IMG/VR virus record: IMGVR_UViG_3300032135_000003
Location: 1 to 64,000 of that record
From: a virus
Taxonomy: Duplodnaviria; Caudoviricetes
Length of the DNA: 64,000 nucleotides
Reading direction: 5' to 3' (one strand)
Positions 2,715-41,540 of this stretch are shown in pieces (the first letter of the stretch is position 1; every line of letters begins with the position of its first letter). Below the pieces are notes generated by a model that did no database searches, was not told where the DNA came from, and was given only the letters and a program-made list of their open reading frames with translations. The translations under genes and the position numbers were made by a program.

Positions 2715-3155
2715 TTAATTTCCTGTACTTTCATTGTGCCATTTTATAAATTCAATTCCTGCCTTGTAAGTAGCCTCTAATTTACTATTTCCATCTTTAT
2801 CAATAGATTCAAAACCTACATCTTCCATTGATTCTATCTCACAGTATTTGTATCCTATAATAGTGTAAAATGAGGTTTCTTCATACGTTGTTTCTTCAAT
2901 CTTCTCAATAACTGGCATGAGCCAATCCCATGAGGAATTATACTTTAGTTTCTCCTGATCTAATACATAGCACTTCTGATTATGTCCATGTGAAACTCCA
3001 TTATGACACCATTCGCAAAGCCCGTCTTTTTTATATTCTGAAACCCTAAAATATTTTAAATTAGGCTCTTTAAATATAGATACAGACTGTGTGTTTAGAT
3101 TTGTTAACCCCATAAATTCAGCTATTAATCTGTTATCTTCTACTATATTTTTCAT
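2715..3155 (-). CDS. Phage hypothetical protein, 'NRLIAEFMG...WDWLMPV' family; paralog of 10623..11012
   Basis: Shared motifs and 37 identical nt with the second copy. Confidence 0.75.
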   Translation of the reverse strand: MKNIVEDNRLIAEFMGLTNLNTQSVSIFKEPNLKYFRVSEYKKDGLCEWCHNGVSHGHNQKCYVLDQEKLKYNSSWDWLMPVIEKIEETTYEETSFYTIIGYKYCEIESMEDVGFESIDKDGNSKLEATYKAGIEFIKWHNESTGN

Positions 3156-5907
3156 TATTTCTTAGTATAAGTTGTCCTTTCACCTTCAAAATTCTCATAA
3201 CCTAAAGCCATTGCAATACATAGAAACCTACTTCTGCCGTTATATTGCTGCATTATATCAATAGCTTCATACAAAATATTAATTTTTTGGTCTTTTGTAA
3301 GCTTGCCAAATTCTTGACTAACATGCTCGCTTGTATAGTACTTTACCTTTGTTTCCATTGCTATATGTATTTTTTATCCAAATTTTTTGCAACTTCTAAA
3401 GCTTCCTCCCAGTATATTTTTTCTACTTCAATAGTAGTTACAACTTTTAAAATCTCTTCAATACATATCACTGCACTATCCTTAGCCCTAACCATGTGTA
3501 TTTTGTGGTCATAAGGTTGTTGTATGTCTGTTTCTGAATTGAATCTATAAAATATCTTTTTTGCTGATTCTTCTGGTGTCATTTTCATAATTTTAATTAT
3601 TAAAAGTGGAATAACCTTTATCCCACATTTCACCCTGTCTATAACTCCAAAACTCTATAGCTGAATGAGAGTATCCTTCTTCTGTAATAATTTTATTACC
3701 CCTCATACTCATCCACCCATTATCTGAGAACGCATCATGAGTTATTTTAACTCCTTTTTTCATTGCTGTAATAGCCTCTTGTCTTTCCATTTTCATAATT
3801 TTATTATTTCGTCTAAATGTTTCTGTATAAAATCTCTTTTTAACCCTGTTTGGTAAGATAAGCTGTCTATTGATCCTTTTATTAAAAGACTGTCTTCTTT
3901 ATCAACTCCTTTTTTAAGTGCATCTTGTAAGCCGTAACAACGGTTAAACGCATCTATTACTAAATTAGTGTAAAACTCCCCCATTATAAAATTAGTTTAG
4001 GATTGTTATACATACTCCTCATATTAATTTTGTCATGAATGTTTAATATCTGCCCTGAAAAGAATTTTTGCATAACTTTTGAAGTCCGATAATAATCGTA
4101 TTGCGTTTTATAATTGTGAAAAATCTTCATAATTTTAGTTTAAAAAAAGGTTAATATTGCGGGTGTAGCTATACAAACTACTTGATAAGCTCCCCATAAA
4201 TAAACATGGCTGTCTTGTAGTCCTTCAAATAACACTACTTTTGGTTCTGTGATTAAAATTAATAATAGTAAAAATCCTATAATTGGGGTGTAAATTACAT
4301 ACTTTAACATTGCGGGGGTTTTTAAATTTAAAATTTGTGTTATTCAGCTTCCTATAAGCTAATATCATAATAATTTTCTGGACTTTCTAAAATGTTATTT
4401 GCAATATCATCTAAATCTACATGATCAGCAACTGTATCAAAGCTTTCTAAGTTTGCATAACCGTTAAACTTAACATACTTATCATTAAAATTATATTCTC
4501 CGTATGAAGCTGCCCTAACTGCGCCTATCACATCGTTTTCAAAGTACATTTCAAAGAAATCCTCATCATTGTCATGAATAAGGTTATCTCCATCATTAAT
4601 AGACTGACAAAAATCATTGTGTACACCCATTAACTCACTGTCTGAAAGTCCTTCCAAATACTCTAATACTGCTTCAAAATTGTTCTTAATTTCTGTTTTC
4701 ATAACTTTAATTTACTATAAAAATCTTGGGTTAATATTGTTGTTACTGCATAATTTAAAATGTCAACATCCTTACTATTTTCTTTTAGTATTGTGCCAGT
4801 GAGTAATGTTTTACCTTCAAAAACTTTAACTGTTATATTGTAATTTGAATTAGTTTCAATTTTTCTAGCTGTTACCTTATAACCATCTATTTTAAATGTT
4901 TTCATTCATTTAGGTTTTCAAATTTAAAACTGTCAAGGTCTTTCCTTAACTCTTTAGTACTGTCATAGCCTAAAAAGGTTGTTAAGTGACTTGTATTAGT
5001 ATCGCTATAATTTAAGGCTTTTGTATCTAAGATAATCTGTTTACCCTCCTTAGATTCAACTATCTTTGCTACTATTGTATTGTAACTTTGAAAGACTGTC
5101 TCTCCTTGTGAACTGTGAACAAATTGATTTGCTATTGCTTTGCCGTTCTTTCCTATTAGTTGTGTTGTCATATCTTAAAATTAAAGTCTATATTTTGATT
5201 AATATAATTTAGTATTTCTTTATCTCCTTTTTCAAATATTTCTTGAGGTACGGCATAATCATAACTTTCGTCAAACTCATATATTTCACCTTCTGCAATA
5301 TCATTATTAAAATAAGAGGTAATTAAATCGTTCACCATATCTGTTGTTACTCCTATATGATTTTCAACTTCATCTATTGTTATAACCGTTATAGTTTTTA
5401 ACGGTAGTCCTTTATATAATTCCATATCTATTTATTTTTAATAAACCAATCGTTTGCAATCATACTCCATGTTATACCGTTCATTCCTTTTGTTTCATAT
5501 CTTACATAAGGTGCAAAACTGGCTAACATAAGTCTTACCTGTTCTGCTGAATAAGTTTTTTCACTTTCTATAAACTCATTTAAATCATCTATTACTCCGT
5601 TAAGCCCAGCTTCTGTTTCTTCGGGTATTTCTGCCCACTCTTTAACAGTAGCTAATCTGTTAGTAATATCAACTAAAATATCTGTTTCTTCTATTGTCAT
5701 TTTATTTCCTGTTTTTTAATGCTTCGTTATAATGCTTTATAGTACTGTCCTGTTCTTCTCTTAAATCCTCAATAGACTTTGATAAGTAGTGTTCTACTGA
5801 AATTTCAGTTACTCCTATCATTCTCCGCATAGCCTGAATGTTTGTTATTACAGTCATAGCTTCAATTTTTTCATCTATTGTCATAATATTTTTGTTTTTC
5901 TTCCTTA

Positions 5908-39000: not shown

Positions 39001-39975
39001 TTAAGACCTACTAGTACAAGGTGTAGCGTTTCTTGTGCCTTTTACATCTTCATTAATACACCAAGCTATGAAATCAAAGTCTAAATAAGGCAATGGCTTT
39101 ACTTTATCCTCGGTAGAAGCTGGGATAGGAGTAATAGTTTTCTCCATGGTATAGATTTTATTAATAGGAATCATTAGGGCGGCAGTTTCTTTTACAAGAT
39201 AACCTCGAATATAGGTGTACTTTCCTTGTACAAGTTCATCATTATGTAACTTGAACTGTTTGTATTCAACATAAGACATTTTCTTGATACGATCAAACTG
39301 TCTTTTTGTTTTTAACAACCCTTTTTCTTTAAGCTTGCGCTTCCAATAATCCCCTTTAGATTTGGCATTGGTGGTTGCCCCCCCTTTAAGAATTGCATAA
39401 CCACTATTAGATAAGATAACTTTATCGGTAATTTCAATCTTTTCACCAAATCTCTTAATATAAGACTTACTTGCCTTAAGTTGTTTTAGAGTTTTTGGGT
39501 CTTTTCCTTGTACTAATACTTCTCTCCGATGCCTCTTTTTTCTAATCATGGCTTCTTGCTTTCTTTTAGAAGAATGCAGCCTAACAGATAAACTATTATA
39601 TTGAGTATCTATTATGTTTTTCCCTATTTGTATAGGCACTAATTTATTATGATTATATTTTTCTTTTAATTTATTATTACCTAGTAATACAACATCACCG
39701 TTATTAAACGTGACAAGCCCCTCTTCTATTAAGAAGGGGACATATTTATGTATTGAATTTAAAGAAAGGTTGGTTTTAGCCCGTAACAAAGAGAATCCAC
39801 TAACAGTTTTGTTGTTTTTGGCTTTGTAGGCGTAGTATTTTACATCCTTATTACTGCGGGAAGATTTAATTATGGAGTAGGCGGCAATAAGTTTATCACT
39901 AGAAATACCCTCAGTATTTTCACCTATCTCATAGAGACGGTAATAAAGTTTAGATGGTATCTTTGCTACGTTCAT
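39001..39975 (-). CDS. Basic DNA-binding protein, possibly replication-related (start likely MNVAK)
   Basis: Very Lys/Arg-rich; HTH-like LRAKTNLSLNSIHKYVPFLIEEGLV; the longer start lies inside the leader hairpin. Confidence 0.5.
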   Translation of the reverse strand: MNVAKIPSKLYYRLYEIGENTEGISSDKLIAAYSIIKSSRSNKDVKYYAYKAKNNKTVSGFSLLRAKTNLSLNSIHKYVPFLIEEGLVTFNNGDVVLLGNNKLKEKYNHNKLVPIQIGKNIIDTQYNSLSVRLHSSKRKQEAMIRKKRHRREVLVQGKDPKTLKQLKASKSYIKRFGEKIEITDKVILSNSGYAILKGGATTNAKSKGDYWKRKLKEKGLLKTKRQFDRIKKMSYVEYKQFKLHNDELVQGKYTYIRGYLVKETAALMIPINKIYTMEKTITPIPASTEDKVKPLPYLDFDFIAWCINEDVKGTRNATPCTSRS

Positions 39976-39979
39976 AATT

Positions 39980-40106
39980 AAAAATAAAAAACCCTTAGAC
40001 ATTAACGGTAGGATCTAAACTCTACGCTCCGTTGTCTAAGGGTTTACCGTTTTTACACGGTTAGTTTCTTAATTTGATTTAAGAGTTTAGATCAAGTGCA
40101 AATATA
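39980..40106 (-). promoter_or_regulatory. Promoter plus terminator/antiterminator leader
   Basis: CAAATATA 40099; AAACCCTTAGACA...TGTCTAAGGGTTT-TTT hairpin; 5' GATCTAAACTCT complementary to its loop. Confidence 0.6.
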
Positions 40107-40167
40107 CAACACTTTGTTAAACTGACAAAACAAATAAGTTAAAAATTTATATTTTTATTAACGTTAG

Positions 40168-40238
40168 AGAGCAGAGAGAGAATTGAACTCTCACATTTGG
40201 TTTTGCAGACCGCACCCCTCACCGTCAGGTTTCTGCTC
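40168..40238 (-). tRNA. tRNA-Cys(GCA)
   Basis: Cloverleaf, loop CT-GCA-AA, U73; only 3 of 5 anticodon-stem pairs form. Confidence 0.75.
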
Positions 40239-40243
40239 ATAAG

Positions 40244-40315
40244 TGGAATGAGTTAGATTTGAACTAACGACCATCTACGCTTCAAGCAGACACTCTACCC
40301 CTGAGTTACCATTCC
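40244..40315 (-). tRNA. tRNA-Phe(GAA)
   Basis: TCTGC-TTGAAGC-GTAGA; atypical G37/C38. Confidence 0.85.
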
Positions 40316-40348
40316 ATTAAAAGTAAACAAATCTGTTTACTAAATTAG

Positions 40349-40419
40349 CACTCCCCTAGAGACATGAACTCTAACTATACAGTTTTGGAGACCGATAGGC
40401 ACAACCTACGCTGAGGAGC
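40349..40419 (-). tRNA. tRNA-Trp(CCA)
   Basis: TCGGT-CTCCAAA-ACTGT; G73. Confidence 0.8.
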
Positions 40420-40425
40420 AATTTG

Positions 40426-40497
40426 AGGGCAAGGAGGGAGTCGAACCCTCATAAACCAAATTAACAGTTTGGAGCTTTACCATTAAGCTACCTGCCC
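40426..40497 (-). tRNA. tRNA-Asn(GTT)
   Basis: CCAAA-CTGTTAA-TTTGG; GGTTCGACT T-loop. Confidence 0.9.
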
Positions 40498-40511
40498 ATA
40501 TATAAAAATTG

Positions 40512-40597
40512 TAGAAGAAAAGGGATTCGAACCCTTGGAGGCTACTAACCCCACACCCTTAGCAGGGGTGCACAATAAACCACTCTGTCACTCTTCT
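40512..40597 (-). tRNA. tRNA-Ser(GCT)
   Basis: CACCC-CTGCTAA-GGGTG; long variable arm. Confidence 0.9.
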
Positions 40598-40602
40598 AGT
40601 TG

Positions 40603-40692
40603 CGGAAGAAGTGAGACTCGAACTCACACGAGACACAATGCTCCTACAGTTTTCAAGACTGCTGCCCTTAGACCAACTTGGCTTATCCTTCC
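40603..40692 (-). tRNA. tRNA-Ser(TGA)
   Basis: GCAGT-CTTGAAA-ACTGT; long variable arm. Confidence 0.9.
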
Positions 40693-40703
40693 ATTAATAT
40701 TTG

Positions 40704-40788
40704 TGGGATAAGGAGGACTCGAACCTCCATTCCATAGCGGATTACCAGATTTACAGTCTAGCGCCTCTTCCAGCCGAGCAACCACCCC
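40704..40788 (-). tRNA. tRNA-Tyr(GTA)
   Basis: CTAGA-CTGTAAA-TCTGG; long variable arm. Confidence 0.9.
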
Positions 40789-40792
40789 AAAT

Positions 40793-40820
40793 AAAAAAGC
40801 CCCACATTTCTGTGAGGCTT
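40793..40820 (-). terminator. Attenuator terminator directly upstream of the tRNA operon
   Basis: AAGCCTCAC-AGAAAT-GTGGGGCTT-TTTT. Confidence 0.8.
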
Positions 40821-40843
40821 ATTGCTTTTATATATTCAGGGTT

Positions 40844-40927
40844 TTACCCCATCGTCATATCGCATACAGCCTCACCCGATCTATTAGACCAGAAACTAAA
40901 ACAGCTATTATACGAATTATTTTTCAT
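40844..40927 (-). CDS. Leader peptide MKNNSYNSCFSFWSNRSGEAVCDMTMG (27 aa) of the tRNA operon
   Basis: A-rich leader (AAAATAAATAAA-ATG); codons 3-15 only N/S/Y/C/F/W; contains antiterminator GTGAGGCT (40868-40875). Confidence 0.8.
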   Translation of the reverse strand: MKNNSYNSCFSFWSNRSGEAVCDMTMG

Positions 40928-40991
40928 TTTATTTATTTTAAAGTCCACCACCAATGCTAATGAATAGCAGGAGACTGTTGTATTAAAGGTG

Positions 40992-40999
40992 CAATGATA
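40992..40999 (-). promoter_or_regulatory. Probable -7 element of the tRNA operon promoter
   Basis: TATCATTG (one mismatch to TAnnTTTG) about 65 nt upstream of the leader ATG. Confidence 0.5.
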
Positions 41000-41090
41000 C
41001 AACAAGTATTTCAATTACACAAGTTAATGAGCTAAAAATTTATAATTTCAAAAGTTTACCACTTTTTATATTTAGTGGCAATTATTGGAT

Positions 41091-41118
41091 AAAAATAACC
41101 CCCTAACTAAAGGGGGTC
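41091..41118 (-). terminator. Intrinsic terminator insulating the tRNA operon
   Basis: GACCCCCT-TTAGTT-AGGGGGTT-ATTTTT. Confidence 0.7.
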
Positions 41119-41157
41119 TAATAATCAATTTAACAATCAAACTAACAGGCAATATTT

Positions 41158-41421
41158 TTAATAGTTCTCTGAAACTATATCTTCTTGGTCTGGCTTATAA
41201 CGAAAAGAGTTTAATAAAAAGGATTCTAACGTTCTAGCTGCTACTTGAATGGAAAGAGCTCCATTGGTTTTTTGGTGCATGCGAAAAAGGTCGAAGGTTA
41301 CTTCGGATATAAATTCACTGTTTTTTTCTATATAAGAATTTGAAATTAAGTTCTCACTAATATAGTCATCCCATATTAGCTCTTTAAATTCTTCTAATCT
41401 GTGGTAAATTTCATTTTGCAT
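41158..41421 (-). CDS. Hypothetical protein with its own canonical promoter (41443-41473)
   Basis: ORF; CAAATATA 41443 and CAAA 41470. Confidence 0.6.
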   Translation of the reverse strand: MQNEIYHRLEEFKELIWDDYISENLISNSYIEKNSEFISEVTFDLFRMHQKTNGALSIQVAARTLESFLLNSFRYKPDQEDIVSENY

Positions 41422-41540
41422 CTTAACTTGGTTTTAACACTGCAAATATACCACCTTAGTCTTGAATTTCAAAAAGTCTGAATTAGAAATTTATATTGAA
41501 AATAAGTGCCTAAAAATTAGGATTATAATAAAAGAAGTTG

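Follow-up and report, generated by a model that had tools for sequence, protein, structure and literature searches.

A probable leader-peptide attenuator with codons matched to the tRNA genes behind it in a phage with Flavobacteria-like hosts and its relatives

The only tRNA operon of a phage with Flavobacteria-like hosts is probably gated by a ribosome-mediated (leader-peptide) transcription attenuator, a reading to which we assign a probability of roughly 0.78 on the strength of its sequence. The operon lies on the minus strand of a stretch of 64,000 nucleotides (nt) (positions 1 to 64,000 of the IMG/VR record IMGVR_UViG_3300032135_000003, Duplodnaviria, Caudoviricetes; hereafter the window), which is part of a phage record of 130,947 base pairs (bp) that is 86% complete. 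Between the promoter and the seven transfer RNA (tRNA) genes stands a short open reading frame (ORF) with an uninterrupted run of codons for the amino acids of precisely these tRNAs, followed by an intrinsic terminator whose 5' arm is complementary to the 3' part of the ORF. This module is conserved in cultured phages, its codons match the tRNA block that it precedes, and the competing helices co-vary. From this layout we infer that the ORF is translated, as well as the direction of the switch and its natural trigger. Phage tRNA genes are usually viewed as fixed supplements to codon usage or as decoys against tRNA-cleaving defences, and to our knowledge little is known about how their expression is controlled.

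The leader and tRNA transcription unit

By sequence reading, positions 41120-40160 of the minus strand form a single compact transcription unit. It is insulated from upstream transcription by the terminator of the preceding gene (41421-41158), an 8-pair G+C-rich stem followed by a T-run (41097-41118), and its own promoter motif, GTTGTATCATTGCA, lies at 40990-41003. This 14-nt motif contains a Bacteroidota-type -7 box (40999-40992) and is recurrent: with up to two mismatches allowed, the window contains ten copies where 1.05 would be expected, and the minus strand carries nine of the ten. A 5' untranslated leader of ~58 nt (40928-40985), its start deduced from the position of the promoter, is A-rich immediately before the ATG of the leader ORF (27 codons plus stop; 40844-40927), which was recognised from the sequence and from homologous ORFs in relatives. 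The 10-pair terminator hairpin (40797-40820) comes next, and its T-run (40796-40789) adjoins the first nucleotide of tRNA-Tyr (40788), the hairpin thus ending 8 nt before this gene. Promoter motif, ORF, terminator and tRNA array follow each other without room for a promoter between the terminator and tRNA-Tyr.

The array is the whole tRNA set of the 130,947-bp genome. Five genes were detected by ARAGORN at default settings and by Rfam, namely tRNA-Tyr (GTA; 40703-40788), tRNA-Ser (TGA; 40602-40692), tRNA-Ser (GCT; 40511-40597), tRNA-Asn (GTT; 40425-40497) and tRNA-Phe (GAA; 40243-40315), all on the minus strand like the remaining two. The last gene, tRNA-Cys (GCA; 40168-40238), was found by Rfam (37.5 bits, cut-off 29) and by ARAGORN at a relaxed threshold. 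A divergent tRNA-Trp (CCA; 40348-40419) with an unusual T loop was called by ARAGORN at the 90% threshold only and aligns with the Trp tRNAs of Cellulophaga phages Calle_1, phi4:1 and phi10:1, anticodon loop included. An exact 23-nt segment of tRNA-Tyr had no match in 185,579 bacterial and archaeal species genomes and occurred in IMG/VR in phi10:1 and phi4:1 only; the phage tRNA-Tyr is therefore no recent copy of a sequenced host gene.

Two further elements lie within or next to the array. An A+T-rich 7-bp hairpin followed by TTTTAAT (40323-40340, minus strand) separates tRNA-Trp from tRNA-Phe and might act as a weak terminator inside the array or as a signal for processing that divides it. 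Directly past tRNA-Cys, a perfect copy of the promoter motif (40097-40110, minus strand) heads a putatively structured leader (39980-40106, minus strand) that precedes a gene for a protein of 333 amino acids (aa) (40002-39001).

A codon run matched to the array

Codons 3-15 of the leader ORF (40883-40921, minus strand) encode only Asn (4 codons), Ser (2 TCN and 2 AGY), Phe (2), Tyr, Cys and Trp (1 each). Both Ser boxes are present and all seven downstream tRNAs are represented. Under strict wobble rules, 12 of the 13 codons are readable by anticodons of the array, while TCT requires extended U34 wobble. An earlier note, made from the letters of this stretch, had proposed the -7 element at 40992, the ORF at 40927-40844 with its 13 matching codons and the seven-tRNA array, and all of these were verified, the -7 element sitting inside the recurrent motif described above.

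In an A+T-rich intergenic region, such a likeness could arise by chance, all the more as 29% of the six-frame codons of this genome, itself rich in A+T, encode one of the six amino acids. However, runs of at least 13 such codons occur only twice in 261,890 six-frame codons and the leader harbours the only one that is in frame. The other run (24761-24717; Asn/Ser/Tyr/Cys/Phe) was rejected as not comparable, being out of frame within the ORF of a hydrophobic 49-aa membrane protein. Moreover, at least six further phage lineages carry the module in front of the corresponding Tyr-Ser-Ser-Asn-Trp-Phe-Cys block, which leaves coincidence with a negligible probability.

The module in other phages

A BLAST search of the region against GenBank phages returned matches to tRNAs only, with those to Cellulophaga tRNA-Tyr reaching into the upstream T-run. 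The same module is present in IMG/VR contigs and in cultured phages of Cellulophaga (phi38:1, phi40:1, phi4:1, phi17:2, phi10:1 and Calle_1-3), Tenacibaculum (Gundel_1) and Maribacter (Panino), with Caulobacter phage phiCbK as a probable further carrier. As these represent cultured phage-host pairs (Cellulophaga, Tenacibaculum, Maribacter, Caulobacter), the device is directly testable. In phi4:1, phi10:1 and Calle_1, a promoter is followed by an ORF of 21-32 codons with a run of 10-16 codons of the set, a terminator and, at once, tRNA-Tyr; the distance from T-run to first tRNA is only 5-10 nt.

A search of IMG/VR with a promoter-plus-start pattern added five modules (L028/L030, L032, L046, L050 and L094) and also retrieved Gundel_1, phi38:1 and phi4:1, with ~12 of 60 short ORFs having tRNAs next downstream. 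The same pattern gave at least 120 matches with 50 short ORFs in cellular genomes, none of them linked to tRNAs among the matches listed, and a degenerate search for the codon run of the window had no match in IMG/VR. A family of 23-28-codon ORFs (L024, L031, L054, L067 and others) was discarded, as it represents an out-of-frame reading in a conserved protein gene and has no tRNAs downstream.

A scanner for codon matches reached p values of 1e-5 to 1e-9 on module-bearing phages, whereas coliphage T5 and Bacteroides phage crAss001 yielded no value below 1e-3 in their tRNA regions, so the device is not universal. Judging by sequence, it probably reaches beyond phages of Bacteroidota: in phiCbK, a 45-codon ORF (locus positions 2541-2678, ~49540 of the record) consisting almost wholly of Pro, Thr, Lys, Leu, His, Ala and Ser codons precedes a block of 13 tRNAs for the same amino acids (Pro-Pro-Thr-Lys-Lys-Leu-Leu-Leu-His-Ala-Ser-Ser-Ser).

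The leader ORFs of relatives have 20-33 codons. Within the run, insertions and deletions among related leaders are 3 or 6 nt long, which keeps the frame, substitutions stay within the amino-acid set, and the order of residues varies across lineages with set membership retained; the ORF is thus presumably translated. Past the run, the frame shifts between relatives and the tail of the ORF is not conserved as protein, and the sequence 3' of the run behaves as RNA structure. Compared with the leaders of cultured phages, the window has a longer 5' untranslated region and another residue order in the run. The same promoter motif stands 5' of the leaders in Calle_1, phi38:1, Gundel_1, Panino and IMG/VR loci, and in several relatives just a few nt separate the -7 box from the ATG, a spacing that points to leaderless or near-leaderless mRNAs.

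This conservation also bears on the idea of a T-box-like RNA, i.e. a leader that would bind tRNAs directly and use the codons as untranslated specifiers. Codons complementary to the downstream anticodons do resemble specifiers, but they lie in frame between start and stop in every lineage, with frame-preserving insertions and deletions, and number 10-16 in a row where a T-box has one. Further, the T-box covariance model had no match at E≤1 in positions 39500-41500, nor did any other riboswitch of Rfam. We therefore consider an RNA of this kind extremely unlikely.

One leader per tRNA block

Calle_1/phi38:1, phi4:1 and Panino carry ~20 tRNAs in three blocks, each with its own promoter, leader and terminator. 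The leader of block 1 (Ala-Lys-Ile-Gly-Met-Asp-Thr-Val-Arg) is rich in Lys, Thr, Ile, Gly, Val, Asp, Ala, Arg and Met, that of block 3 (Pro-Glu-Gln-His-Leu-Leu-Arg) in Arg, Leu, His, Gln, Glu and Pro, and the Tyr...Cys block has a leader of the window type. The window phage retains the Tyr...Cys module only. In Panino, this module lies 40 kb from the other two and on the opposite strand, from which it follows that the modules are independent units. Across 18 modules, residues 3-18 of the leader belonged to the amino acids of its own block in a mean fraction of 0.68, versus 0.32 ± 0.065 with blocks permuted among leaders; the observed mean was reached in none of 20,000 permutations (p ≤ 5e-5).

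The matching follows individual tRNAs. The complete genome of phi10:1 is devoid of any tRNA-Asn, and Asn is absent from its codon run as well. In Gundel_1, tRNA-Asn is found in the second block together with Pro, Gln, a tRNA with CAT anticodon and Leu; the leader of this block includes four Asn codons plus one ATA codon, and the run of the first leader is without Asn. Overall, Asn-codon counts distinguish blocks with tRNA-Asn from those without (Mann-Whitney p 7e-4). Arg is encoded by AGA in block-1 leaders (tRNA-Arg TCT) and by CGN in block-3 leaders (tRNA-Arg ACG) in five of six cases, as judged by eye.

Several observations concern the blocks themselves. Together, the three blocks of Calle_1, phi4:1 and Panino cover all 20 amino acids, and as a rough rule the first letter of the codon separates them: one block serves mostly U-starting codons plus AAY/AGY, another mostly C-starting codons plus GAR/UUR, and the third A/G-starting codons. 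Block order varies between phages and block content is nearly constant. In Gundel_1, a gene for an HNH endonuclease with its own promoter (locus 3462-3968) is inserted between the second leader with its terminator and the tRNAs that this leader should gate, and overlaps tRNA-Pro at its 3' end. A conserved gene for a 48-49-aa membrane protein stands just upstream of the block-1 leader (phi38:1 gp065, locus 47-193; Panino CDS0064, 1587-1736), and in Panino the ATG of this leader is a few nt past the stop codon of CDS0064. Finally, a tRNA-like sequence with a TGC (Ala) anticodon loop comes first after the block-1 terminator in Calle_1 (locus 285-360) and phi38:1 (404-480); it is not called by ARAGORN, and the leader there has an Ala codon.

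Terminator and competing helix

The predicted antiterminator strand (region 2) spans nt 52-60 of the leader ORF (40868-40876, minus strand), beginning ~7 nt past the end of the codon run, and is complementary to the 5' arm of the terminator (regions 3 and 4). The claim of the earlier note that this complement is exact and pairs better than the 3' arm was confirmed: GTGAGGCT (40875-40868) is the exact complement of AGCCTCAC (40819-40812) in the 5' arm, with which the terminator's own 3' arm pairs less well owing to one G-U. The duplex of region 2 and 5' arm has a predicted energy of -14.0 kcal/mol compared with -7.3 ± 1.7 for shuffles (p 0.007). In the predicted fold, the full leader forms the terminator, and omission of the 3' arm leaves the 5' arm paired with region 2.

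The same competition was assessed in 15 leaders (two of them, L094 and L050, near-duplicates) by taking the hairpin beside the T-run and comparing the best partner of its 5' arm in the upstream transcript with 1000 dinucleotide shuffles. An intrinsic terminator was found in all 15, and in all 15 the best partner is located at nt 44-76 of the ORF, directly 3' of the run and no further than the stop codon. Ten leaders individually beat the shuffles, with a combined p of 5e-13 (Fisher). The sequences of the 5' arm vary among leaders and region 2 co-varies with them, and an alignment of six leaders has compensatory substitutions in the terminator helix. A helix between the run and region 2 was proposed by RNAalifold in one subfamily. 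Four features in all, i.e. an own promoter, a matched leader, an abutting terminator and region 2 in the 3' part of the ORF, are common to the window and 17 further modules.

The earlier note had expected leaders to track the tRNA set in related phages and the helices to compensate, and the comparison turned out as predicted. Its interpretation of the layout as a stalling attenuator of the trp/his type is supported by the homologous modules, the separate leaders per block and the co-varying antiterminator.

Might the ORF simply encode a functional small peptide with its own terminator, next to tRNAs whose transcription depends on leaky read-through or on a promoter that escaped recognition? 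A Cys-rich tail is indeed common to some leaders of the Tyr...Cys class, and several of the mostly unannotated leaders are listed as “hypothetical protein”, e.g. a 33-aa coding sequence (CDS) before the Panino array. However, residue order is shuffled between lineages with the set kept, the frame of the tail shifts among relatives, and the three compositional classes map one-to-one to three tRNA blocks. Further, the 3' part of the ORF co-varies with the terminator arm as RNA, and the mere 5-10 nt between T-run and first tRNA speak against incidental proximity. A peptide function of this sort is thus very unlikely.

Proposed mechanism and its trigger

In the attenuator that we favour, transcription would begin at the promoter (~40990-41003) and the 27-codon leader would be translated. 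If the 13 codons are read fast, the ribosome would pass region 2 (40876-40868) and proceed to the stop codon; region 2 could then not pair with the 5' arm, the terminator (40820-40797) would form and transcription would stop just before tRNA-Tyr. If any sensed codon is slow because its charged tRNA is scarce, the ribosome would stall upstream of region 2, which would be free to capture the emerging 5' arm, so that no terminator forms and polymerase would continue through all seven tRNA genes. The tRNAs would then be released by RNase P and 3' processing. As the tRNAs produced read the very codons that are sensed, the circuit would constitute a negative feedback loop in which decoding demand sets the supply of phage tRNAs and several amino acids are sensed together.

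Several points weigh against this model. The nearest relative found, which was reached via the downstream 333-aa protein (L007/G001; 46% identity) and rejected as a carrier, has no tRNAs near that gene, and its two single tRNAs (His and Leu) are without such leaders. Each sensed amino acid is represented by only 1-4 codons in the leader, a number that bears on how sensitive it would be to the loss of one tRNA, and tRNA-Trp falls below default detection thresholds with no Rfam match at E≤1. Pairing of region 2 with upstream sequence, sought as a region-1 partner, is barely better than in shuffles across 14 leaders (Fisher p 0.013), and in the window the predicted pairing of the 5' untranslated leader with region 2 is no better than in shuffles (p 0.14). 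In the window, ~22 nt separate the core of region 2 from the stop codon downstream, which means that a ribosome terminating there would not cover it and would have to block it sterically. In two decayed arrays, L050 (Asn) and L046 (Phe and remnants), the full six-amino-acid leader is kept before a single surviving tRNA, and arrays can thus evidently decay faster than leaders. Lastly, amino-acid starvation would, through uncharged tRNA, also induce the operon with no benefit to the phage.

A rival reading is that leader and terminator do form a switch but with other logic, namely a sensor of general ribosome availability or translation rate, or one in which stalling favours termination. With no region-1 partner established for region 2, an untranslated leader might read through by default, and as the run of the window ends so close to region 2, a ribosome stalled at its last codons could cover region 2. 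A general translation sensor, however, would have no need for three leaders with disjoint, block-matched amino-acid sets, nor for Asn codons that move with tRNA-Asn, and we regard such logic as improbable.

Regarding the natural trigger of the proposed attenuator, the earlier note put forward the destruction of host tRNAs by defence nucleases, which is compatible with the anatomy. A more specific suggestion is a dedicated, multiplexed sensor of host-tRNA loss, in which anticodon nucleases, other tRNA-targeting defences or infection-induced tRNA decay would stall the ribosome and the making of replacement tRNAs would be a counter-defence that is induced on demand. Where a phage has three modules, this would amount to three independent channels covering all 20 amino acids. 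We are doubtful about this suggestion. A demand-driven feedback on phage tRNA supply accounts for the anatomy equally well as a defence nuclease, and the codon-usage demand of late infection or the decay of host tRNAs would serve as trigger equally well.

Annotation of leaders and tRNAs in phage records

Our findings correct the annotation of several “hypothetical proteins” in GenBank phage records, which are these leaders. In NC_062744.1 (Calle_1), annotated tRNA features are shifted by 52 nt from their ARAGORN positions, e.g. Lys at locus positions 336-408 instead of 388-461 and Ser(TGA) at 1953-2042 instead of 2005-2095. In phi4:1, the hypothetical CDS gp076 (locus 1707-1808) overlies an unannotated tRNA-Ser(TGA), and in phi38:1 the hypothetical CDSs gp068 (locus 2268-2387) and gp071 (3148-3279) lie over tRNA-Trp and over tRNA-Pro plus tRNA-Glu, respectively, again unannotated.

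Comparison with known systems

Our literature search, which covered subscription journals poorly, found no description of codon-matched leader control of tRNA genes, and the text of the phi38:1 transcriptome paper does not discuss the control of phage tRNAs. Among Rfam families, Phe_leader (RF01859) gave a full-length but weak match at 40791-40921 (26 bits against a gathering threshold of 55, E 0.14). The likeness concerns the layout of a Phe-rich ORF plus terminator, and the window leader is not a member of this family.

Judged by sequence, the module appears to have the structure of the leader-peptide class save for an established 1:2 helix, the pause or anti-antiterminator helix of trp and his. 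In enterobacteria, multivalent leader-peptide attenuators control ilvGMEDA (Leu/Val/Ile) and thr (Thr/Ile), and others are known as trpL, hisL, pheL and leuL. With ilvGMEDA and thr, the phage module shares a short codon-enriched ORF, a terminator before the regulated genes, an antiterminator predicted to depend on ribosome position and several amino acids per leader. It differs in that its output is tRNAs and not biosynthetic enzymes and would thereby feed back on decoding, that each leader would sense six to nine amino acids with up to three leaders splitting all 20, that many of the phage relatives are apparently leaderless or nearly so, that the 1:2 helix is not established, and that the hosts belong to the Bacteroidota, in which Shine-Dalgarno sequences are little used. 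The pheM leader of pheST, the attenuator of the E. coli phenylalanyl-tRNA synthetase, is similar in that a gene of the translation apparatus is attenuated by sensing the decoding of cognate codons, but it is cellular, senses one amino acid and has a synthetase as output. T-boxes of Firmicutes likewise sense the state of tRNAs by codon-anticodon pairing, decide between terminator and antiterminator and control translation-related genes, but they bind uncharged tRNA directly without translation, by one specifier codon and with a conserved T-box sequence.

What is new here is the tRNA-gene target, the six to nine amino acids per sensor and the splitting of the whole code among up to three of them, in a modular design with one sensor per tRNA block that follows the gain and loss of tRNAs. 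If our reading is true, phages gauge translational demand and supply tRNAs on request, and attenuation of the trp/his type extends from amino-acid metabolism to the decoding machinery itself.

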